This document shows, one piece after another, positions 9,284 to 49,530 of a stretch of DNA of 64,000 bases. Under the pieces are notes generated by a model. That model saw nothing but the letters and a program-made list of their open reading frames with translations. It did not search any database and had not been told where the DNA came from. Every line of letters starts with the position of its first letter. Position 1 is the first letter of the stretch. Source of the stretch: Eledone cirrhosa (Eukaryota); the NCBI GenBank assembly GCA_964016885.1, contig OZ024745.1:134230001-134294000 (forward strand). The letters run 5' to 3'. Both the position numbers and the translations under genes were made by a program.

Positions 9284-11987
9284 GGGGCGCAAACGAGATA
9301 CGTAGGAAACAGGGTCCTGGAAAGCAAGATCAACAAGGGCAAGCATTTGCCCAGGCAACGCTAGAGGAGCACCATACAGTAATTCGGCCGGGGAGAACCC
9401 AAGGTCCTCCTTTATTGATGACCGAATTCCTAACAACACAATAGGAAGGTACTCGCTCCAACGTTGAGAGTCTGGATAGGCGCGAAAAGCGGCCTTTAAT
9501 TGGCGGTGGAATCGTTCCACCATTCCGTTTGAAGCAGGATGATAGGCTGTGGTCAGAATCCGTTGAGCGCCAATGATCTTTGTGAGCTCAGAGAAAAGAT
9601 GGGACTCAAATTATCTACCACGGTCTGTGGTGACTGTAGTTGGTACCCCAAAGCGAGTAATCTACCCTGATACCAGGGCACGCGCTACAGTCTCAGCAGT
9701 TATATCTTGTAAGGGGATGGCTTCAGGCCATCTCGAAAAACGATTGACACAGGTTAAGAGGTACGAATATCCACTGCTGAATGGCCAAGGTCCAACGAGG
9801 TCAATGTGTATGTGCTGAAACCGAGCATCAGGAGTACTGAAAGTACCAAGCGGAGTCCGGATGTGTCTGTGGATTTTAGATCTCTGACACTGTGTGCAGG
9901 AACGGCACCAGAGAGTAATTTCTCGCCTCGTATTGGGCCAGTAGCCGTTATAAGCTTTACTGTGGCAGAAATTCCTGGGTGAGAAATGTTGTGCAAAGCA
10001 AGGAACACAATTCGACGGTGAGTTTCAGGAACAAGTGGTCGTGGTGAATCCGTAGATACATCACATAGAATCTGCCTGTCGGTGGTCGACAAGGGCAGAT
10101 ATTTGAAGATACAAGTCGCAAATTCGGCAGAAAGAGTATCCAACGATTGGAGTGCAGGTTGATCTGTAGCTAAACGACCTAAGTCGATCTCGGATGACGA
10201 GATGGAGCTGATTGGCAAACGTGACAATGCGTCTGCAGCTACGTTATGCGAGCCAGCAATGTGCTGGATATCATTTGTAAATTACGAAACGTAGTCCAGG
10301 TGCCTTGTCTCTCTGGGCGAATATCTGTCGCTTTAGCCCTCAAAGCGAAGGTCAGAGGTTTGTGGTCGGTTAAAACTGTAAAATTTCTCCCCTCAAGAAT
10401 ATGAGAGAAATGTTTCACCGACAGATATATGGTTAATAATTCCCGCCCAAACGTGCTGTAACGCGTTTCTGCTGGTTTCAGCTTCCTCGAGAAAAATACC
10501 AAGTTGGTTTCCAGCGTTGAACTGCTGTAAAATGCTCCCACAGCGGTATCAGATGCATCAACTCAAAGTGAAAGCTTGGCATCTGGTACAGGGTTGGCTA
10601 GTAAAGATGAACTAGCGAGTGCTGTCTTGGCAGTCTAGAAGTCTTGAAGCTGTCCTTGTGTCAAGGAAATATCCTCATTCTTCTTACGACGATTTTTCAA
10701 AATGTCAGTAAGGGAAGATAGCAAATTAGCACAATGAGGAAAGAAACGCCTATAGAAATTGATTAGGCCTAAGAAGTGACGCAACTGGTGAAGTGTAGTA
10801 GGCGGAGGTAAATCCTGTATGGCTTGAACTCGCTGAGGGAGCGACCTAATACCTTCCGTGTCGATGAGGTGGCCTAAAAAATTTAGCGAAGTGGAACCGA
10901 AAACACACTTTGCGGGATTCACACGAACGCGGTAATCCTGAAGTCGCCGAAATAAGAGATGCATGTGGCGTATATGCTCTTCCGGAGAGGAACTAGCGAC
11001 GAGAATATTGTCTATGTAAGCATAACGAAGTCCAGACCACGAGTCACTTCGTCTATGAACCGCTGAAAAGTGCTAGTGGCGTTCCTGAGTCCGAAAGGCA
11101 AGGTCAAAAAATTCGAAGGATCCGAAAGGAGTTGTAATCGCCGTTTTCAGAATATCCTCCTTCCTGACCGGAATTTGGTGGTAGGCTTGCACTAAATCTA
11201 GTTTTGAGAAAATTTTACACCCTTGCAGTGAAGATGCGAAATCCTGGAGATGGGGAATAGGATACCTATCCAGGACGGTCATAGCATTTAACCTTCTATA
11301 ATCCCCAGTGGATCTCCAGTCGCCGGAAGTCTTGGGCACCATGTGTAACGGTGAAGCCCAAGGACTCGAAGATGGGCGAATAATGCCCAGCTGTAGCATA
11401 TGGTCGAACTCGGACCGTGCTGCCTTTAATTTGTCCGCCGGTAAGCGGCGTGGACGCGAAAACACTGGAGCACCGGTGGTGGAAACGAAATATTCAGTTG
11501 AGTGTGTTGGCTCAGTGACTCGAAAATTTCCATCGGTGAGCTCCGGGAAAGAACCTAGCAACGAATGGTAGGCGTCTCCAGCGGCAGCGATGAAGAATAT
11601 GGGGCTGACTGTTGGAGCATCAGCTTTCCGGCCACGAATTGAAAAACCGGTGATGTCATCCACCAGGCGTTGGCCACGGACGTCCACAGTCAATGAGAAG
11701 TTGTGGAGGAAATCCGCTCCTAAGATAGGGTATGGCAAATCGGCAACCGTAAAAATCCACTTAAAATCCCTACGAAGATTTAGGAATTTGAGAGGAAGCG
11801 AGATTTGCCCGTACGTCTTTATAGACGAGTGATTAACTGCCTGCAGAGTAACGGCAATGGACCGGCCAAATACTACAGGAGGCTCCTGTATCCACGAGGA
11901 AACCTCTTCCCGACATAAGGTCCTTAATGAAGAAATGGCGGTTTGGTGGCTTTATGTTGAGGTCAACTTCCCCCATCAGCGGACCTC
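9284..11987 (-). pseudogene. pol: Gypsy pol (PR-RT-RNaseH-IN), multiply frameshifted
   Basis: ORF pieces 11073-11738, 10635-10964, 10239-10541, 9754-10227 and 9254-9523 carry successive pol motifs. Confidence 0.92.
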
Positions 11988-12780
11988 TTAGGCGTTTCCC
12001 GCCTTATGAAACGAGCAAGGTTGCACGAAGTTGTTCGCGCTCTCGGCAAATCGCTCATGGTACCAGCATAAAGATGAACCTGGTGACTTGGAACGACATC
12101 TAAAAGATTGCGATATCCCGCGGCTGCGGGGGCGCGAACGGGCACCACACCAGGCCTTCATCTTATGGAGCTCCAGGTTGAGTTCCTGAATGGCCTTCTG
12201 CATCGCCATAATAGCTGAGCTGTCTATAGGCGCTGCCGCGCAGATTCCATGGCCAGGTGTGGCCCGAGCTGGGTGGGAAACAGCGGCAAGGGCTTCGCTG
12301 CCTCCAGCACCCGTCACTTCGAAAACTTTGTCCGCAGAGGCGGCAAGCTGATCCCCCGTGCAAGTATCCCTAATGGGGGCCAAAATTGCCTGTACGTTGG
12401 TCGGTAGGCGCGAGAAGAACAACTGCTTCAGCATGGCAGTTTCTGCTACCGACCCCTCCGTTAGGTCCTTCATTCGCCTTATGAGGTTCGATGGGGTGCC
12501 ATCACCTATATGCTCCAGATGAACTAGAGCCCTAAATCTTTTTTCTGCAGACTGCAGTCCGGCTGAGTATTTCAGCCTTCAGAGACTTGTACGTCGCGTC
12601 GGTGGGTGTCTCTAACACCAGGTCCTTAATCGCTGGGAGAAGTGCCGGCGGAATTGCACTAAGGACCAGAGGACGTTGTTGTGCCTCGTCAACTCTGTTC
12701 GCCTCGAAAAATGCTTCGAGTTGGGCGAACCATAGCCTTACGTCGCCCGTGTACGTAGGTAGAACAGAATGAGATGCCAT
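11988..12780 (-). pseudogene. gag: Gypsy gag, frameshifted
   Basis: MASHSVLPTYTGDVRLWFAQLEAFF.. (within ORF 12532-12864) continues into 11988-12473 (LKQLFFSRLP..CWYHERF..PC). Confidence 0.85.
11994..12000 (-). promoter_or_regulatory. Putative -1 ribosomal frameshift slippery site GGGAAAC at the gag/pol junction
   Basis: G GGA AAC lies in the gag frame one codon before the gag TAA stop. Confidence 0.65.
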
Positions 12781-16951: not shown

Positions 16952-16978
16952 GATAATATACGGGATTTTATATCTACG

Positions 16979-17093
16979 TACTCTGATGTGTTGACCAGAG
17001 GTAAATAATGTATTGGAGATGGAGTGACGCAACTTCAAGCGATTAGCGACCTCTAAACCTAGACTCATCTGATCAACGAAACAAATGTCAGTA
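16979..17093 (+). ncRNA. Hammerhead motif with long stem II, core mutated (CTGATGT)
   Basis: tact-CTGATGT-gttgaccag..ctgatcaac-GAAAC-aaat-GTC|agta; same pLTR family as 48222-48723. Confidence 0.65.
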
Positions 17094-17189
17094 ATTGAAA
17101 TAAAGCCTCTTATTGTACAGCCAACCATGTTACTCTTCATTCTTTCACTATATATATCAAAGAAGAGACATATACCATAAGAGTGAAAG

Positions 17190-21676: not shown

Positions 21677-21719
21677 ACGTTGCTGACGATAGCTAATAAG
21701 CTTGAAACTAGTACAGCGT
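21677..21719 (+). ncRNA. Minimal type I hammerhead ribozyme motif
   Basis: acgttg-CTGACGA-t-agc(taataa)gct-t-GAAAC-ta-GTA|cagcgt. Stem I pairs over 6 bp; stem III is the palindrome actagt. Confidence 0.85.
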
Positions 21720-21723
21720 TCCT

Positions 21724-22923
21724 TTGTCAGTGTTGTCACAATCTAATCACCCTAAATCTATCCTTAAAAACCTTGCATATAATATATCACTTAGAATTTC
21801 TAACCTTTCTTCTAACCAAGATGTATTTGATAAAAATGCGACCTTCTATAACGAAGCTCTAGATAGAAGTGGCCACAAAAATAAAGTAGAGTATATACCT
21901 TCTACTAAAAATACTGAAAGCATACAACATAATATTACCAACAAACACCAAATGAAAAGTACACACCTAAATGCCACCCACACTATACCCCAAAATACCA
22001 AATCTTCTAATATAAAGTATAGTAACTCTCAAAAAACTACTCATCATACAACTCTAATAAATATTAATAATAAAACTCCTAATAAAAAGGATAAAACACC
22101 TAAATCTACAAATATAACTAAAAATAGTCGTGGTGAGATCATTAACATTAATCCTCCTAGTAAAAATCACGATACAACCTATAAAAATAATAAAAATAAT
22201 AAACAACATAGAAACCGTAATAGACGGGTTACTTGGTATAATGCTCCTTTTAATTTACAAGTTAAGGATAATATTGCTAAAAAATTTTTTTATATCCTTG
22301 AGAAAAACTTCCCGCCAAACCACAAATACCATCAAATCTTAAATAGGTCTACAGTTAAATTCTCATACTCTACAACAAATAACATAAAACAAAATATAAG
22401 TGCATATAATGCATATAAATGTAAGAAAACCATAAGTATACCACCAGTACATCAAATTAACCATAATATCTCCTCAAATACAGAATTAACGAAAGGATGT
22501 AACTGTAGAAACAAAGCAAACTGCCCATTAAAAGGGAATTGTCTTGTTAACAACATAGTCTATAAATGTAATGTTAAAACTAAAGATTCTATTTGCTCAT
22601 ATATAGGAGCTACCTCTAACAATTTTAAGACAAGGTTTAATACCCACAAGCATAGTTTTAAAAATGCCGCACTGGCTAATACAACATCTCTAGCTGAAAA
22701 AATCAATAGTTATAAAAATAAGAATATAAAATATGATTTGACCTGGAGTGTGCTCAAAAGAGCCACCCCTTATCAAAATAATAGAAATGAATGTAGATTA
22801 TGTTCCCAAAAACTATTTGAAATAATGAAGTCTAAGGATATCTTATTAAATAAACGACAGGAATTAATTATATCGTGTAATCATAAACTAAAAAAAACAT
22901 TTAAATATTATAAACCTAATTAA
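21724..22923 (+). pseudogene. PLE RT thumb + Cys-rich linker + GIY-YIG endonuclease (N-terminally truncated, frame open for 399 aa)
   Basis: SNHP..ILKNL..RISNLSS..FYNEAL..SG; RRVTWYN.PF; CNCRNKANCPLKGNC; IVYKC..YIGAT..FKTRF..H; CRLC; LNKRQE..CNH. Confidence 0.92.
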
Positions 22924-27408: not shown

Positions 27409-27691
27409 CTTTTTTTGTTTAATATAAGGAATTGTTTATTCATTATTTGTTTAATATTTTATCTTGACTCTGTATACCGTTTATCTTTCACCGAAAGTGG
27501 TTTTTCATTACATCTCTTCTTTCCATGATATCCGGAATACATTGAGTTCTTCATACGGATTGGACACTACCGTAAACTCTTGGTAGATTTATCTACATAT
27601 ATATATTATATATATATTATATATAATATATATATATATAATATATATTAAAATATAAATATTAATAAAATAGATGTTCTTTTGATCAATT

Positions 27692-27747
27692 ACATTTATT
27701 ATACATATTTCGGATGTACAACAGTACGTCCTCATCAGACAAAATAT
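27692..27747 (-). ncRNA. Minimal type I hammerhead, intact core
   Basis: atattttgt-CTGATGA-ggacgtac(tgtt)gtacatcc-GAAA-tatgt-ATA|ataaatgt. Confidence 0.78.
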
Positions 27748-27845
27748 AATGATACATGACATACCCTGAGATGTTAAATGGTTAAGATTTACTACCTTGA
27801 TTAAATCTTAACCATTTAACATCTCAGGGTATGTCATGTATCATT

Positions 27846-27902
27846 ATATTTTGTCTCATGGGGACGTACTGTTGTACATCCGAAATATGTATAATAAAAT
27901 GT
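27846..27902 (+). ncRNA. Hammerhead copy with disrupted core (CTCATGG)
   Basis: Mirror of 27692-27747 with two core substitutions. Confidence 0.65.
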
Positions 27903-28045
27903 AATTGATCAAAAGAACATCTATTTTATTAATATTTATATTTTAATATTAATAACTCCGGAAAATTATTTTTCTTGTAGAGTGCTTCCAATCTACTGTA
28001 AAACTCATTCTTTGACATAATCATTGAATATCGTTTAACACTTTA

Positions 28046-29261: not shown

Positions 29262-30690
29262 TGTAGAATATTTACGTATCGAGAGAGAGAAGGAGGGATA
29301 GGTGATACATGTAGTTATTTGCCAATAGCGAATGCAGAGGGTGCTCAATACTAGTGCCGGCAGTGTTAAATATTAGAAGTGTTAATATCTAGTGGGCGAG
29401 AGAATTAGCAGAGCGTAAGCACGTGGAGAAATAAATATAGGAGAACAAACCGTTAACACATGTTTATTCAAAATAGCACCTACGTACGTTTCGCCCGAAT
29501 GGGCTTCTCAAGGGCATAAATAACTAAAAAGTGTTCCTTACATCACTTGGAATAAGTTTTTAGAGATGATAAGTTCATGTCAGAGTAAAAAAATCATGTA
29601 TTGATTTTGTAGTAGGTCAAGGGAGATAACCCAGGCCGGTGTTAGGGAAGTCTTTTCCGGACAAATTTTTTATCCGTTGCTAGTATGTGGCTACTACCTT
29701 ACCATTGTTGATACGCACAGGGTCATGTATACAACGTTTGTTTCGAGACGTTTGTTTTCAGCGCCTGGGTCGATTCCTGCCGGGTCTGGGATGCATGGTT
29801 AGTTTCCGGATGTTTTTTGCAGCGCCTGCCCGCCGGGGTGTTAAAGCTTGGTGCAGAGAGACCCGGTTTACGGTTTCACTCCTCGTTCTTATTCCATCTG
29901 GAGTAAGATATTTTTAAGCTGTGTGTACAGGCTATCGTCGTTTCAGCTCTGCTTTTGATGAGCTCGTGGGGTGCCGTTATGATGTGGTAGAGCTCCATGA
30001 GGCAAAGCTCGCACTTCCTCTTGAAGTTGTACGGTGCAGCTCTGCCGACAATTTCCCAGTGCGTGGAGAAGCTGATGTTTGAGTCTTTTAATGATGTGAT
30101 GTAGTTCGCAAGCGAAGTGGAGTGTCTTAGTTTTTTTCGAAAGAGTGGAGATGTGTTCGAAATCTAATTTTGAACGGGCCAGAGGTAGCCCTTATATAAT
30201 GTTTAGCGCTATTATGGCTAATTACGGTGCACCTATATATAACCCTATCAGTCAAGCAGTTCCCCCTAAGGGGGCAGCGTCCCCTGTCGCGGCAGTTGCA
30301 ATTTCGGTCGCGGTCCCTTCTAGTTCTCACGGTAAGGCTATTATTATTGCTATCTACGTTGTTACCTACGCTCCCACACCTGTCATTAGCACCATTATAA
30401 CCTACTTCGTGCGGACTGGTACCATTATTATTCCGCACGCAGCAGCTACTTCTGTTGCCGCCAGGTGACCCGTGCGGGTCACTTGCATATTCCCCAGTCA
30501 TGTCGCGGTTTTGTTGATTGCGTCTGTAGTGACTGTTCCCAGCACTATTGGATGCTGCTAGGGAGTTGTTAAGGCCGATATTGTTGTTGTCAGGTGTAGG
30601 TGCGTCTGCGCTAAGGTGCTGTGTCTTGGTGATCTTACTGTGATTAGTTGTTTCTATGATGTCTGCTAGGTTAGAAGGCTGGGTAGACAC
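29262..30690 (-). mobile_element. 5'-truncated Penelope-like element 2 (GIY-YIG + pLTR with HHR)
   Basis: CNCRDRGRCPLRGNC..VIYRC..YIRAT..FKIRFRTH; a frameshift at the poly-A near 30131 continues STSLANYI..WEIV..CELC..CTH to a stop at 29876; HHR downstream; ends at (TA)n. Confidence 0.88.
29476..29515 (-). ncRNA. Minimal hammerhead with U3:A8 core variant
   Basis: gccc-TTGAGAA-gccc(attc)gggc-GAAAC-gtac-GTA|gg(t)gc. Confidence 0.72.
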
Positions 30691-31249: not shown

Positions 31250-31390
31250 TTAGGAAGCCGTAGCTATGCAAACACCGGGGCTGACGCCCTCTGGTGGTGT
31301 CCAGCAGAAGCAAGGGGGACAACCGTCTATGCATTTCAGGCTTGACTGGCCTTCTCCTGAGAGGCCAGGTGTTTGCATAGCTACGGCTTC

Positions 31391-31394
<4 letters not shown>
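31250..31394. repeat. Short element with perfect 27-bp inverted repeats
   Basis: ttaggaagccgtagctatgcaaacacc (31250-31276) and its exact reverse complement (31368-31394); abuts (TA)n. Confidence 0.85.
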
Positions 31395-31457
<63 letters not shown>

Positions 31458-32525: not shown

Positions 32526-32557
32526 AGCAGATTAAAATTTAAGCAAAGAATCGCTGC

Positions 32558-33630
32558 GGTGGTTTGTACCGTGATGACGGTATTTTGACCATGACAAAGT
32601 GCGGCCCTTGTGCTTGCGACAGGTTCAGAAAAGAACTTACAGCCTTCTTTAAAGGCTTCAACCTCTCCATACAGATTGAGACCAACCTTTCGGTCGTTAA
32701 TTACCTCGACGTTACCCTCAATTTGTCGAATGGCTTGCACTACCCGTATAGAAAGCCGAATGATACGCTTAATTACATAAGTAACCATCCTGCCAGCATA
32801 ACCAAGAAACGTTTCTTTGAGGCTTTCCCGTCTATCTACAAACGAGCATATTTTCAACGACCATTCCACATATTACAATGAAGCTCTTGCTCGGAGTGGA
32901 TTTGTCGATAAGGTAGCTTATACAGAGTACGAGAATAGACCTAGGAAAAATAGATCCCGACGCATTATATGGTATAACCCACGATATAATTTGGAGGTGG
33001 CCACACCATTAACTAAGATCTTTCTCTCCCTTATTATGAAGCATTTCCCCCCAGCACATAAATATAGTAAAATGTTTAATAGAAATACCATTAAAATTTC
33101 TTACTCTACGACTCCTAACCTTGCACATAACATCACAGCTTCAAATTTAGCTAAATTACCTAGCCGTAGGAACACGTGCAACCCTGTAGCTAGTACTAAC
33201 TGTAATTGTAGGAATCGGGTTGACTGCCCCCTATCCGGGAAATGCCTCTCTAGAAAAATTGTCTACAAATGTAAGGTTGAAACACCCACGCCCCGTAGGG
33301 CCTACATAGGGTTAACCGCCAATAGATTCAAGCAGCGTCTTTACATGCATACCCATTCTTTTCTTAACCCTTTAAGAAGGAATATGACGTCACTTTCAGC
33401 TTATATCTGGAGTCTAAAAGACAACCACACCCAATATAAGTTACACTGGGAGATCCTAGCTAAGGCGAGATCGTATAACGGAAGTAAAAGACCATGTGAC
33501 CTCTGCGCCGCTGAGGCCCTGGAAATACTCTACGCCAAAGACCACATCTTAAACAAAAAATCTGAGGCAGGCAATTGCGGCTTGTAAACATAAATTGCAC
33601 AAAACTTTCCTGTATTACAGCCCCACATTA
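32558..33630 (+). pseudogene. PLE RT (GLYRDD, VNYLDV, PYRKP, SNHP) + GIY-YIG (IVYKC..YIGLT..FKQR), frameshifted
   Basis: ORFs 32564-32881 and 32817-33587; CNCRNRVDCPLSGKC linker, CDLC, LNKKSE. Confidence 0.92.
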
Positions 33631-35052: not shown

Positions 35053-35197
35053 TTATGGTAGCTAGGATGCGTCCGTCCATAGGCGGTATGCTCCGATATC
35101 AATAGACATGTCTGAGGAACCTGCGAATCCAGAGTCAGGTTCGATCCACACACAGATCGCACCTCGAGCTGTTCGTTGGGGAAACAATTGTAATACG

Positions 35198-35305
35198 TAG
35201 TGAAAGAGTGAAGAATAACATGGTCGGCTGTACAAAAAGGGTTTTATTTACAGTTTTAACAATTGGTTCATTGATCAGGTGAGTCTAAAGGCCACTGGTT
35301 ACCTA
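35198..35305 (-). mobile_element. PLE terminal-repeat fragment, same family as 48222-48723
   Basis: tagtgaaagagtgaag..ggtgagtctaaaggcc is nearly identical to 48223-48318. Confidence 0.85.
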
Positions 35306-35607
35306 AAATGATAACTTGTTATCCCATATATATATCTCTATATCTAGGGCAGGTAAAATTCCCGAGATCCATGGACGAGTTCTCTCCAACGGTCTCTGTC
35401 CCTCATTATTGTTGCCATGTCCTGCGTCTCTAACAGACCAGTGTCTGTTCTTAGGGCATCAACATACGTTAACCTTGGTCTTCCTCTTCCAGTGTGTCCA
35501 TGTAGGGGCTCCTACAGGAGCACTGAGTGCAATGTCAACTCTGGGTGTCGGTGAGCATGTCCAACTAACCTCAGTCTCCTCTGTGTATATATATATATGT
35601 ATGTATG

Positions 35608-35711: not shown

Positions 35712-37439
35712 TATCGGGGACTACATTATCCAACTTTTTCTTTCATTATTTGAGACAGTATGGTCTAATTTGAGGTGCCCCGTAGTTCAAGCGACCATGC
35801 ATGTAGTGAGATCCCTTTGTTGGTGACTTGTTTTTCTGTGTCCTCTTTTATTAAACGTGCTTTTCAAAGAAGATAGAAGAAAGCCGGTCATATAAACCAT
35901 CTTATTTTCCATCTTATTTTCATTCTATTTAATTGTTTGTTTTATTCTGTTCCTATAGTTCCTCACTAATACACATTTTCTTTCGTTATATTAATTATCT
36001 ACTAGTTCATTCACTTTCAATTGTTTCTACATAAAAATGTGCCTCTTTATCTTCTATTTAATCTCTAGAATTTGATTGCATTCGCCTTCTTATCAGAACA
36101 ATTTCGAATGCTATTCTTGAAGCAATATTCAATTTGAAATGTTATCTAGGATCTCAACTCCGGTTTAACAAAACATCAATTAATTAGAGAAATACTCGTA
36201 AGTGTATCTGTGAGTGTGGGGAGGGGACGGTTTCTTTTACTGCATGGGAGATACACAAAACAGCTGAACAATTAAAAAAAAAGTTTTAAAAATAATGAAT
36301 ACAAGCAGGGTGCTTAGGAAAAAAGAAATATTTAATCTCCTATCTTATTGGTATTAAATGGGAAGCTAGAAATTTCTAGAAACGTATCCCAATTTATCGG
36401 TTTCTCAACCATGATTGTATCTCATGTCATTTTAAAGGTTTTCAACCCTGATTGGCTTTAATCTTAATTTCATAAAATTAGATACCAGCATTTTTCTTAA
36501 GAGCCGACAGATTGTGTATTACATCAAAACATCACATTTCTAAAGAAATCTTTTAAAGAAATAAGAATTGACATTGGTTTCTTTTGATTAGCCAGAAACT
36601 AATGCCCTAAATTTTAGGAAAAAGAGAAATGCATAATTGTTTGTTTCCTCGGAGAATGTCTAAAACTTCTTTTATAGAAATAACCCCATTATAAACTTCA
36701 AATTACATAGTCTTTCATTAGCCACCCCCACCTGCGTTTTCAGTCCTTGTCATGCCTAACAAACTTTGTGTTTTACCCTTGTATTGCCGATAAATCAGTG
36801 AAATGTAAGCACCACCTTTCCCTAAAATTTACCGTCTTCTGCCAATGTTAGGTTTTTTTTTTATGACTTTTTTTTTTTTTTTTTGCAAATGTACCCCTAT
36901 AACAAAACAGTAGACGATGTTACATTACACAAATGTTATACACCCGACTACGCACCTTTTTACATTTACTGTTATCATTAACGTTTTAACATTCAAAAAG
37001 CTTTAACTTTCATCCCAGTCCGTCGATAAAACTGAGCACCAATTATATATTGATATTAAAAGTAAAGACTATACCACTTCCATTTACAAAGATGTTGTAC
37101 AAAGATATTTGGCTCAAAAATAGCTATCTACCATTTGTTAAAGACGAAATAGAAGTTTAGGGGCCGAGGCTAATTTAGAAGTTTCTTCCTAATTCAGTAA
37201 CGATAAACGCACGTAATGTTCCTAGAGAGAGCTACCACCGACCACACCCGGCACATCCCAGGATTTCTTATTATTCACGAATATTTATGATTTCTGTATA
37301 AACAACCTCGCCTATCTTTACACCTTTACCCTCTTCTCTTGAAGTAACTTCTCTACCATCGCTTCAAACTAATCACACACAAACACACACACAGGCACGC
37401 ACGAACAAACACACAGGTACGTGCACACAAATGTTCAGC

Positions 37440-39932
37440 GACACAGCAATAGACAGCCATACACAGCCATAGACAGCAATAGACAGATATACACATTCAT
37501 AGACAGACATAGACAGCCATAGACAGACATACACAGCCATAGACAGATATACACAGCAATAGACAGATATACACAGCAATAGACAGACATACACAGCCAT
37601 AGACAGACATACACAGTAATAGACAGACATACACAGCAATAGACAGACATACACAGCAATAGACAGACATACACAGCAATAGACATACATACACAGCAAT
37701 AGACAGACATACACAGCCATAGACAGATATACACAGCAATAGACAGACATACACAGCAATAGACAGACATACACAGCAATAGACAGACATACACAGCCAT
37801 AGACAGACATACACAGCCATAGACAGACATACACAGCCATAGACAGACATACACAGCCATAGACAGACATACACAGCCATAGACAGACATACACAGCAAT
37901 AGACAGATATACACAGCAATAGACAGACATACACAGCAATAGACAGACATACACAGCCATAGACAGACATACACAGCAATAGACAGCCACAGACAGACAT
38001 AGACAGACATACACAGCCATAGACAGATATACACAGCAATAGACAGCCATAGACAGACATCCACAGCCATAGACAGACATACACAGCAATAGACAGACAT
38101 ACACAGCAATAGACAGACATACACAGCCATAGACAGATATACACAGCAATAGACAGACATCCACAGCAATAGACAGACATGCACAGCAATAGACAGACAT
38201 ACACAGCAATAGACAGCCATAGACAGACATAGACAGACATACACAGCAATAGACAGACATACTCAGCAATAGACAGACATACACAGCAATAGACAGACAT
38301 ACACAGCCATAGACAGACATACACAGTAATAGACAGACATACACAGCAATAGACAGACATACACAGCAATAGACAGACATACACAGCCATAGACAGACAT
38401 ACACAGTAATAGACAGACATACACAGCAATAGACAGACATGCACAGCAATAGACAGACATACACAGCAATAGACAGCCATAGACAGACATAGACAGACAT
38501 ACACAGCAATAGACAGCCACAGACAGACATAGACAGACATACACAGCCATAGACAGACATACACAGCCATAGACAGCAATAGACAGATATACACAGCCAT
38601 TGACAGACATACACAGCAATAGACAGCCATAGACAGACATAGACAGACATACACAGCCATAGACAGACATACACAGCAATAGACAGACATACACAGCCAT
38701 AGACAGACATACACAGCAATAGACAGACATACACAGCAATAGACAGATATACACAGCCATAGACAGACATACACAGCAATAGACAGACATACACAGCAAT
38801 AGACAGACATAGACAGACATACACAGCCATAGACAGACATACACAGCAATAGACAGACATAGACAGACATACACAGCCATAGACAGCCATAGACAGCCAT
38901 AGACAGATATACACAGCAATAGACAGACATACACAGCAATAGACAGATATACACAGCCATAGACAGACATACACAGCAATAGACAGACATACACAGCAAT
39001 AGACAGACATGCACAGCTATAGACAGACATAGACAGACATACACAGCCATAGACAGACATACACAGCAATAGACAGACATACACAGCAATAGACAGACAT
39101 ACACAGCAATAGACAGACATACACAGCCATAGATAGCAATAGACAGACATACACAGCAATAGACAGACATACACAGCAATAGACAGACATACACAGCCAT
39201 AGACAGACATACACAGCCATAGACAGACATACACAGCCATAGACAGACATACACAGCAATAGATAGCAATAGACAGACATCCACAGCCATAGACAGATAT
39301 ACACAGCAATAGACAGACATACACAGCAATAGACAGACATACACAGCCATAGACAGACATACACAGTAATAGACAGACATACACAGCAATAGACAGACAT
39401 ACACAGCCATAGATAGATATACACAGCAATAGACAGACATCCACAGCAATAGACAGACATGCACAGCAATAGACAGACATACACAGCAATAGACAGCCAT
39501 AGACAGACATAGACAGACATACACAGCAATAGACAGACATACACAGTAATAGACAGACATACACAGCAATAGACAGACATGCACAGCCATAGACAGACAT
39601 ACACAGCAATAGACAGCCACAGACAGACATAGACAGACATACACAGCCATAGACAGACATACACAGCCATAGACAGCAATAGACAGATATACACAGCAAT
39701 AGACAGATATACACAGCCATAGACAGACATACACAGCTATAGACAGCCATAGACAGACATAGACAGACATACACAACCATAGACAGACATACACAACCAT
39801 AGACAGCAATAGACAGATATACACAGCCATAGACAGCAATCGACAGATATACACAGTCATAGACAGCAATCGACAGATATACACAGCCATAGACAGCAAT
39901 CGACAGATATACACAGCAATAGACAGACATAC
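37440..39932. repeat. Satellite of 10-bp units (agacagacat / acacagc[a/c]at) with a 20-bp dimer period, ~2.5 kb
   Basis: Directly visible; the 10-bp register is kept throughout. Confidence 0.97.
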
Positions 39933-40107
39933 AAAGACAGATTAGTTGCTAGATATGTTGGTTTACTGATTGGCTTCTCTGTTGTGGGAAAGTTGTTGAG
40001 CAAGGCATCTGCCATAAGCAACATCTCATTAGTCTCTTCCAGCAACTTCCACGTAAACCACTTTATTAGACTTATCCGATGATCAAACAATGAACGATCG
40101 AATCAAT

Positions 40108-47539: not shown

Positions 47540-47725
47540 CTGGCTTTTCGCTCAACACTCAACTCATTACTGGATTTAAAAAGTAAAGTCCGAGATTTAC
47601 TTCGTATTCAAGTGAGTGATATTAACAACCAAAGTAATGACCTGCCATCTTTAACTCTGGAAGCTGAGATTGATGACTATATAAGGAAGACTGTTGATCG
47701 TTATGATTGTTCAGTTAATGCTGAG
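47540..47725 (+). CDS. MIEAP-like gene exon
   Basis: tttgcag|LAFRSTL..IDDYIRKTVDRYDCSVNAE|gtaatt; 186 nt, phase 0/0. Confidence 0.88.
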
Positions 47726-48018
47726 GTAATTTAACAGCCATTTCACAATGTTTATTGACATTTCCTGGGTCTCTTCATAAATGTTTGCTAGCTTTCTCAC
47801 TTTTCAGGTTATTTATTCTACACTAGACAAACTTCTACAAGGTTGTTTAATCAGATAAGAATAGCAGCTAAACCTCCCTCACATTACAACTTACTATCTT
47901 AAAAAGGAAATACACAATGAATAATGTTATCCAAAATACTGTGTTTCAGAACTGGAGATAAACAACAACTATATTAGATTCACTGGCAACTGTATATTTC
48001 TCATTAGTTATATATATA

Positions 48019-48174
48019 TCATCATCATCGTTTAACATCCATCTTCCACGCTTGCATGGGTTTGGATGGGAATTTTCCCATTTGAGGCAAGATTGGTTTT
48101 CTTGCTCGTATAGGACTGTCTGGCGGGTTTTCTACGGCTGGATGCCCTTCCTAACACCAACCACGTTTACAGTG

Positions 48175-48175
<1 letters not shown>
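48019..48175 (-). mobile_element. 3' UTR fragment of the RTE family at 40641-41400
   Basis: Reverse complement of about 41240-41400 including the (gat)n tail. Confidence 0.85.
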
Positions 48176-48207
<32 letters not shown>

Positions 48208-48274
48208 ATACATACATACATATAGTGAAAGAGTGAAGAGTAACATAGTCGGCTGTACAAAAAGGTTTTATTTA

Positions 48275-48388
48275 CAGTATTAACAATTGTTTCATTGATC
48301 AGGTGAGTCTAAAGGCCGCTGATTACTCGAGGTTGTGTCACTTGACCTTAAATACAGTGTGGTCTCTGATCAAATCATCAGAATACTG
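48275..48388 (-). ncRNA. Type I hammerhead, intact core, long stem II loop
   Basis: cagtatt-CTGATGA-t-ttgatcag..(~60 nt)..ctgatcaa-t-GAAAC-aatt-GTT|aatactg; perfect 7-bp stem I. Confidence 0.85.
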
Positions 48389-48556
48389 GAGGGTGTAACA
48401 TATGGCATTAGTATTTATAGATACATCAGAGAATCAAGTAAATAAAAACAATAACATCATAATAAAAATATTATCTTTTATTATTGATGTTATTGTTTTC
48501 ATTTACTTGATTCTCTGATGTAATCTATAAATACCAATGCCATATGTTACACCCTC

Positions 48557-48670
48557 CAGTATTCCGATGATTTGATCAGAGACCACACTGTATTTAAGGT
48601 CAAGTGACATAACCTCGAGTAATCAGCGGCCTTTAGACTCACCTGATCAATGAAACAATTGTTAGTACTG
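48557..48670 (+). ncRNA. Hammerhead copy with U4C core change (CCGATGA)
   Basis: Mirror of 48275-48388. Confidence 0.7.
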
Positions 48671-49245
48671 TAAATAAAACCTTTTTGTACAGCCGACCAT
48701 GTTATTCTTCACTCTTTCACTATCATTACTCCAAGAATAACCTGCATGAGAATTCTCGCAAACTCGCCACCTAACTAAGGAAACCTTTTGTTGAGTCAAA
48801 CAATGCCGTACGTTAAAACTATCCACTGTACAGAGTACTCACAACCTCTAACTGGATTACCTAAAATTATACCTTGTATCCTATATATATATATGTATAT
48901 ATGTATAAGATAAACAGAAATAACAAAACAATTGCCTTCCCATCCGACCCTGCCCTCAAACAACAAATATAAGCTATTTTGCCAGATGGTGCTATTAAGT
49001 TAGACATGGCCTGGGCCACTACTGGTCGAAACCTATCAAAGTTATCTGTGGCGTATTGAGGATTTCATCCAACAATAAATCAATAGCTGAATGGAAATGG
49101 TAATCAATACAACTAGACCAGTGTCAACAGAATTGCGTAGAAATCCTATATAACATTGCTTCTATATAACACTGTATGTCATAAATATATATAAATACAC
49201 ACTTGTGCCACTTATATAATTTCATATATCGTTACTATTTTGCAG

Positions 49246-49530
49246 GAAGTTTGCTCCCAAATATATTTGACATTATATGATTATCCATGTCTTCGCCAAA
49301 GTTCTGGTCTACGAATGTACATTGAAGAATGTGTTCGAGTTTCCTGGGCACTGAATGTCCAAAATCCACGCTACGTCATCAGTTATGATTCACGGACTTT
49401 CAATCCAAACTTTCATTCACGCTTCCATACATCAGATTCAACAAGTGATGACATTTTGGAATTTCTCTGGCCTACACTTTTGGAAAGAAATAGTACCAGT
49501 TGTGTTTTTAAAGGTGTTGTCTTAACATGA
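49246..49530 (+). CDS. MIEAP-like gene, last coding exon (mitochondria-eating protein C-terminal-like domain)
   Basis: tttgcag|EVCSQIY..YIEECVRVSWALNVQNP..FNPNFHSRFH..LWPTL..VFKGVVLT*; motif pattern recalled from the SPATA18/MIEAP family. Confidence 0.88.
   Translation, partial: EVCSQIYLTLYDYPCLRQSSGLRMYIEECVRVSWALNVQNPRYVISYDSRTFNPNFHSRFHTSDSTSDDILEFLWPTLLERNSTSCVFKGVVLT

Follow-up and report, generated by a model that had tools for sequence, protein, structure and literature searches.

What is a palindrome with a hammerhead motif in each arm doing inside an intron of a cephalopod gene, and how did it come to be there? Such a structure lies at 48222-48882 of the window, by which we mean the whole 64,000-nucleotide stretch of the Eledone cirrhosa genome that was analysed. 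We read it as a 5'-truncated Penelope-like element (PLE) insertion in an intronic (TA)n tract, in which the hammerhead-bearing end of the element is present twice, once inverted and once direct; it was likely laid down by two reverse transcription events at a single target and likely has no host function. We hold this reading with a probability of about 0.86.

The palindrome and its intron

The palindrome is confirmed to be real and built as the first-pass annotation had described it. Its arms, 48222-48467 and 48476-48723, are 96.4% identical in the arm alignment and enclose an 8-nt loop at 48468-48475, in agreement with the ~250-bp arms and tiny loop reported there. The tail, given as 160 nt, measures 159 nt (48724-48882, plus strand), and the TA-rich flanks are a (TA)n/(TACA)n microsatellite on the left (48175-48221) and a (TA)n tract on the right (48882-48905). 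(TA)n on both sides would hide a target-site duplication, and none can be read at the hairpin. Aligned to the family, the left arm is an inverted, 5'-truncated PLE end on the minus strand (family positions 8-255), which stops at the family's internal 3' end (…CTCTTTCACTA). The direct end on the plus strand (48469-48723, positions 1-255) includes the right arm, and the loop is, by fold and family alignment, the junction of both copies at positions 8 and 1. Outside the loop, global alignment finds seven substitutions and two one-base indels between the arms; all seven substitutions are transitions, where a majority had been claimed. As plus-strand RNA they would form three G-U pairs and four A-C mismatches, and the whole plus-strand hairpin folds to a minimum free energy of -423 kcal/mol (z -45 against 20 shuffles); taken singly, the arms show no excess stability over shuffled sequence (z 0.49 and -0.37).

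The host gene was identified by three plus-strand reading frames that match MIEAP (PF16026) and by four exons between 41926 and 49527 that align with an Argonauta protein. The last coding exon is 90% identical to that protein and 69% identical to a cuttlefish protein, in keeping with the coleoid host that had been suspected, which by these matches is probably an octopod. In run X4, 47725 and 49246 are adjacent in a contig of 2214 nt, which fixes the intron at 47726-49245, and the hairpin indeed lies within an intron of the host gene. Upstream is an exon at 47541-47725 (plus strand; start approximate, from Pfam and the X4 contig), followed by a GT donor at 47726; downstream, X4 and the protein alignment place the last coding exon at 49246-49530, with an AG acceptor at 49244-49245 and a stop at 49528-49530. 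The "last exon" of the earlier description thus stands as the last coding exon, the X4 contig being colinear to at least 49700, and the distance of ~520 nt to it fits the end of the right arm (522 nt) but not the end of the tail (363 nt). X4, a run whose type is not on record, yielded this spliced contig and zero depth in the unique intron bins, and the changes in its contigs are balanced transitions (A>G at 7 places, T>C at 12, C>T at 11 and G>A at 7, counted in contigs only). The unique flanks had no coverage in the RAD runs X6 and X7 or in run X5, which comes from another organism. Two further high-copy repeats, with very high read depth, occupy 48020-48165 and 48978-49046 of the same intron. 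Elsewhere in the window are a long minisatellite array of 10/20-nt units (37303-40000), a broken gag-pol remnant resembling an LTR retrotransposon on the minus strand (9662-12578, judged from translations alone) and, by eye, a short element with ~27-nt terminal inverted repeats adjoining a (TA)n tract (31263-31397).

The parent element and its hammerhead-bearing end

The hairpin is shown to be the 3' end of a PLE of the family that combines a reverse transcriptase (RT) with a GIY-YIG endonuclease: in longer copies the unit is continuous with an ORF for both enzymes, which bears out the PLE origin first proposed. A search of the species' own 3.0-Gb genome returned 4343 first-look candidates; in almost all top matches among the best 40, which were scored, arm and tail stand alone. 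Other copies carry RT-thumb and GIY-YIG sequence upstream of the unit, with staggered break-off points. The longer loci that bear the unit downstream of RT and endonuclease (L112-L123) were assigned by motifs. In 11 of them the parent is one ORF with a YRDD-type RT and a C-terminal YIG-type endonuclease, broken in all 11 long loci read; a Pfam scan of this ORF gave no significant families. RWK and DKT motifs (RIRWKA, ADKTS) are found in L119 and L123, and CxCX5C, CxxC and CxH motifs (CNCHLPDKC, CRLC, CRH) in L112; family copies sit in (TA)n, with 596 exact end-plus-TA matches genome-wide. Judged by these motifs and by its (TA)n target, the parent appears to carry the marks of the Hydra clade. 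The tail represents the 5' leader of the next unit, as in other PLEs, since in L119 and L123 it passes into the beginning of the RT-endonuclease ORF. L123 has a repeat period of ~3.3 kb, with a long T-rich 3' region, against generally less than 3 kb in the Hydra clade. Family copies differ from the family majority sequence by 1.4-6.7%.

How does this family relate to known PLEs? Octopus bimaculoides harbours a Hydra-clade element, Hydra-1_Obim, described in PMC8557442. It shares with our family the RWK, DKT, CxCX5C, CxxC and CxH motifs, the C-terminal GIY-YIG domain, the (TA)n target and a hammerhead near the 3' end. It differs in length (2507 bp against the ~3.3 kb of L123) and in its hammerhead, whose core is CTGAAGA, where ours has CCGATGA, a GUU site and a long loop II. 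By eye, from unaligned protein and hammerhead rows, we regard the two as distinct. The layout itself is already published: an inverted, truncated pLTR copy plus a tail is known from endonuclease-positive PLEs (PMC8557442, PMC3846280). Like those units, the present one has an inverted truncated copy abutting a direct one, a one-ended tail and a microsatellite target, as well as TATA and initiator-like motifs, which PMC3846280 reports in the pLTR. Unlike them it retains no ORF, and its near-symmetric junction gives 246-bp arms. In the literature listings and passages covered, which lay outside subscription journals, Repbase and most supplements, neither this PLE family nor its 159-nt tail or C4 core is described.

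The hammerhead motifs are those of a minimal type-I fold, of the dimer-type architecture known from PLE hammerheads (PMC4209133), with stems I and II, a GAAA box, a short palindromic stem III and an NUH site. Of three hammerhead-like folds that a two-strand motif scan picked out in the window, these arms hold two. On the minus strand (48275-48388) the core is CTGATGA (48381), with GAAA at 48293 and a predicted cut after 48282 (GUU); on the plus strand (48557-48670) the core is CCGATGA (48564), as had been noted for the sense arm, with GAAA at 48652 and a predicted cut after 48663 (GUU). Both have a 7-bp stem I, an 8-bp stem II round a long loop and GAAAC-AATT-GTT, and the right-arm motif has one private A>G in stem I (48665). 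The CUGANGA box is present in the left arm only. The "perfect" hammerhead that had been seen in the antisense arm thus has its CUGANGA and GAAA boxes, but its stem III is only 2 bp and its cut site GUU, as in both hairpin motifs. In each arm the minimum-energy fold is 3.5-4.1 kcal/mol more stable than the hammerhead fold. Rfam, searched over the window at E<=1, gave 101 matches; most were miRNA models drawn in by microsatellites, and none was a hammerhead.

Which of the two cores is the original? The first-pass annotation had taken CTGATGA as intact and CCGATGA as damaged, and the family reverses this. Its fragments have CCGATGA in 57 of 80 cases and CTGATGA in 9, and genome-wide the same 23-mer has 332 exact matches with C against 57 with T. 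The core C sits in a CpG. Because its C>T rate (11/79) matches that of the other 12 CpGs pooled (p 0.72), CpG decay of the family CCGATGA most likely gave rise to the left arm's canonical core. A sister subfamily keeps CTGATGA with GUC (L114, L119). As for catalysis, Lünse et al. reportedly observed dimer cleavage of small PLE hammerheads. A natural U4C hammerhead variant is cited as strongly reduced in activity in vitro but still viable when carried by a viroid (PMC3088659). The minimal PLE hammerheads described in PMC4209133 include opposite-strand pairs 100-700 bp apart in Schistosoma, and they resemble ours in being type I with a 7-8-bp stem II, an extra base after the core and a short palindromic stem III; here, in contrast, the majority core has C at position 4 and stem II encloses ~63 nt.

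Several relatives of these ends are found nearby. An older, 77% similar relative of the same PLE end, with a CTGATGT core and a GTC site, lies between TA tracts at 16978-17164. PLE remnants with C-terminal GIY-YIG sequence, 30-49% like the parent ORF, occupy 21683-22923, 29894-30303 (minus strand) and 32549-33587, and the inverted 5' piece of the first holds a compact hammerhead-like CTGACGA…GAAA at 21683. The element at 27645-28045, likened earlier to the present one in architecture though not in sequence, does contain a real palindrome (27645-27949) with arms 95.4% alike, a tail and TA flanks; its best match to 48222-48882 has an E of 0.48, its minus strand reads CTGATGA…GAAA and its plus arm has a degenerate core. 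It has the same layout but belongs to another family. At G000:C1:73305751-73305965 there are four CTGATGA hammerhead 5' boxes, three head-to-tail at 56-nt spacing and one inverted.

Both arms also keep a TATA/initiator-like pair facing outwards. TATAAA (48419) and an initiator-like CCAGT (A at 48387) lie 32 nt apart on the minus strand, antisense to the host, and the same pair is found in sense at 48526 and 48558, again 32 nt apart; both are predicted promoters from the motif scan. In 25 of 53 listed hammerhead rows the 5' edge of stem I has an initiator-like CA with a TATA box 31-32 nt ahead of it, and the spacing is kept across subfamilies that differ in the letters between. The 5' ends of family copies pile up at the same place: 21 of the 68 ends between positions 60 and 225 fall at 87-94 (rough p 5e-12; ends hand-called once those that are mere continuations of another subfamily had been set aside), three of these abutting (TA)n directly, and a further 8 of 68 fall at 192-198, near the cut site. 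The pile-up fits cDNA synthesis that would run off at a transcription start, and stem I pairing may add to it. A splice acceptor at 88-91 was considered instead of a start site and rejected, as copies beginning there have no common upstream exon.

Insertion layout and the origin of the inversion

The insertion layout was followed across the family. Among 134 fragments taken from 88 loci, 45 have their end at positions 255-259 and 66 at 410-415, the loci having been chosen on those same ends; independently of that choice, 179 raw reads of run X6, from another study, break at 48723 into (AT)n. Exact end patterns number 596 genome-wide for the internal end plus TA, and the tail junction has 145. 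Layout was read within 1.5 kb. Of 30 internal-end loci fetched, 27 were left after removal of 3 near-identical repeats; they comprise 6 hairpins, 2 spacer inverted repeats, 6 non-overlapping inversions and 13 partnerless copies. The 25 tail loci (30 fetched, 5 overlapping loci already present dropped) comprise 7 hairpins, 1 spacer inverted repeat, 1 non-overlapping inversion and 16 partnerless copies. The 28 top DNA matches contain 1 hairpin, 4 spacer inverted repeats, no non-overlapping inversion and 23 partnerless copies. Inverted and direct pieces meet at variable points across loci. A shape that had been singled out as special is thus made routinely by this PLE family, and scaling 6/27 to the 596 exact matches gives an estimate of at least 130 such hairpins genome-wide. 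The window holds a second copy of the same family at 35190-35324, an inversion without overlap (inverted positions 157-262 plus the last 32 nt of the tail) with (TA)n on its right. In L061, L067 and L083, positions 88-89 are joined to 196, that is, both strands of hammerhead stem I meet, as if stem I had served as joining homology. Near-identical family insertions ~100-140 kb apart are seen in L057-L060 (G000:C1:217.3-217.6 Mb) and at G000:C4:203.86-204.60 Mb, suggesting large tandem segmental duplications.

The inversions without overlap favour twin priming. The endonuclease would nick both strands of the (TA)n target; one nick would prime cDNA at the tail end and the other at the internal site, with TA-like letters at both sites helping. 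Both cDNAs would stop early and be joined at their ends, so that cDNAs that overlap, as they would have here, give a palindrome, and those that do not give a plain inversion. Overlapping arms would need an RNA that was copied twice, or two RNAs. An experimental parallel is PAc, the Poseidon element of the green anole, in which, in vitro, RT starts at two sites that bound the tail and both strands are nicked (PMC11167929). The two systems share an AT-rich target and a tail that is part of the 5' part of the next unit. PAc belongs to another clade, however, and its ORF starts inside the hammerhead, where ours starts after the tail. Other points speak against the model. PAc primes at RNA without homology to the cut DNA, whereas TA-like letters are found at both ends here, and published PLE tails are 30-40 nt long against 159 nt in this family (such tails are described as typical and optional, and the length is compatible with membership among these PLEs).

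Several other origins have to be weighed against two target-primed cDNAs. Palindromes can arise during library preparation, and no single read or contig was seen across the complete element 48222-48882. Even so, a fold-back chimera in the assembly is barely credible: of the nine places where the arms differ, most have the family state in one arm, and the end of the inverted arm coincides exactly with the internal end of the family. Runs X1 and X2 moreover each contain the centre, without a difference, as an 83-nt contig (48414-48496) whose depth of 9.8 and 8.6 is that of single-copy sequence (11.5 and 7.5 for the unique flank), although X1 and X2 are one sample, possibly the assembly's own source, and the contig, reaching fewer than 31 letters to the right of the palindrome centre, gives support short of a bridging standard. 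An independent non-autonomous hairpin element, a MITE or retrozyme that spreads as a 660-bp unit, would account for the long inverted arms, TA flanks and hammerhead motifs, and we consider it just as extremely improbable. The unit is continuous with the RT-endonuclease ORF, its junction is unique among the loci read, the top genome matches are arm plus tail only, and, where a MITE or fold-back DNA transposon is concerned, the tail lies outside the repeat and the junctions vary among loci. Non-LTR retrozymes (bioRxiv 10.64898/2026.07.22.740005) are likewise non-coding, PLE-derived and equipped with a type-I hammerhead, but they consist of head-to-tail repeats, whereas a single head-to-head pair is found here.

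The more serious competitor is self-priming, in which a single cDNA folds back and primes its own second strand, as proposed in PMC3846280. The copies meet almost symmetrically at positions 8 and 1, as they also do in L031, L050, L066 and L089, and one template copied onto itself would explain the changes common to both arms. We nevertheless regard it as rather unlikely, since every inverted piece has its stop at one internal site, and since the direct piece does not contain the inverted one, an outcome impossible by fold-back, in 6 of 27 internal-end loci, in 1 of 25 tail loci and in the copy at 35190-35324.

The shared changes deserve attention under the preferred twin-priming reading as well. 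Both arms have in common 8 substitutions over 239 sites that are absent from the nearest relatives, against 7 differences between the arms, and a 26-nt haplotype common to both is exclusive to this locus. Because of these family-absent substitutions, something beyond simple insertion and decay is needed; arm-to-arm conversion or an aged source copy would explain them. Counting rare changes, long abutting arms have 12 shared against 34 private, and other pairs 18 against 70 (p 0.51); without L112, which belongs to another subfamily, the conversion test gives p 0.002, an exclusion chosen after seeing the data. L061, 54 kb away, was rejected as a local source copy, having a few of the subfamily bases in common but not those private to the arms. 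Editing of the template RNA was also rejected as the source of arm differences, only 1 of the 7 being A/G in the element's sense, and the changes shared between the arms are C>T, G>A and T>C. The arms last matched roughly 4 million years ago, and the copy stands some 12-16 million years from the family majority; both figures are rough and use a rate from another species (distance 0.09 for 25 million years; PMC13282606).

Double-stranded RNA, regulation and wider meaning

Could the hairpin work as a regulatory RNA, with host pre-mRNA forming dsRNA that is edited or diced, thereby tuning the host gene or acting in trans to silence the PLE family? Part of the premise stands. Folding of the plus strand predicts the ~250-bp duplex that had been claimed for the pre-mRNA, which may be edited by ADAR as any young inverted repeat might be; the host gene is spliced in X4, and the host is a coleoid. 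In transgenic Drosophila, siRNAs matching Penelope arose from inverted copies of it (PMC3681739), and editing targets young repeats across animals, an octopus being among those sampled (PMC9989829). The arms share more private changes than those of other loci, and conversion, which would explain this, would also prolong the duplex.

Masking of a ribozyme, the other half of the earlier proposal, fares less well. Host pre-mRNA carries only the C4 motif, and as its complement lies upstream in the same pre-mRNA, this motif would be buried in the duplex. The canonical core is a minority state, and since it lies on the strand absent from the pre-mRNA, that RNA has no canonical ribozyme to be masked; the U4 motif needs antisense transcription. 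Hammerhead cleavage is not needed for insertion of the anole element in vitro (PMC11167929). With at least about 130 such hairpins estimated genome-wide, this one is not a special source of dsRNA, and in an aged family, with copies as far from the majority as given above and every long ORF read broken, there is perhaps little left to silence. Nothing singles out the present copy for function, and a working regulatory RNA is, in our view, improbable. We give equally little credence to a more elaborate scheme, in which the arms would be intact promoter-plus-ribozyme modules placed head-to-head and kept alike by conversion, an antisense RNA would begin with a CpG-restored, unmasked hammerhead, and an edited duplex would lie near the last 3' splice site, all together tuning the host gene or the PLE family.

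The single locus, one of probably more than 100 such stumps, therefore matters little. Should intronic PLE hairpins in octopods turn out to undergo heavy editing, they would contribute, as other repeats do, to the load of dsRNA that derives from repeats. The hundreds of family junctions, by contrast, record how a PLE integrates, a mode that is still open (PMC8557442, PMC11167929). For PLE specialists they may be of use through a pair of fixed 3' ends separated by 159 nt, inversions of both the overlapping and the non-overlapping kind, the spread of a C4 core, and 5' ends that pile up at the hammerhead edge, where transcription is predicted to start.
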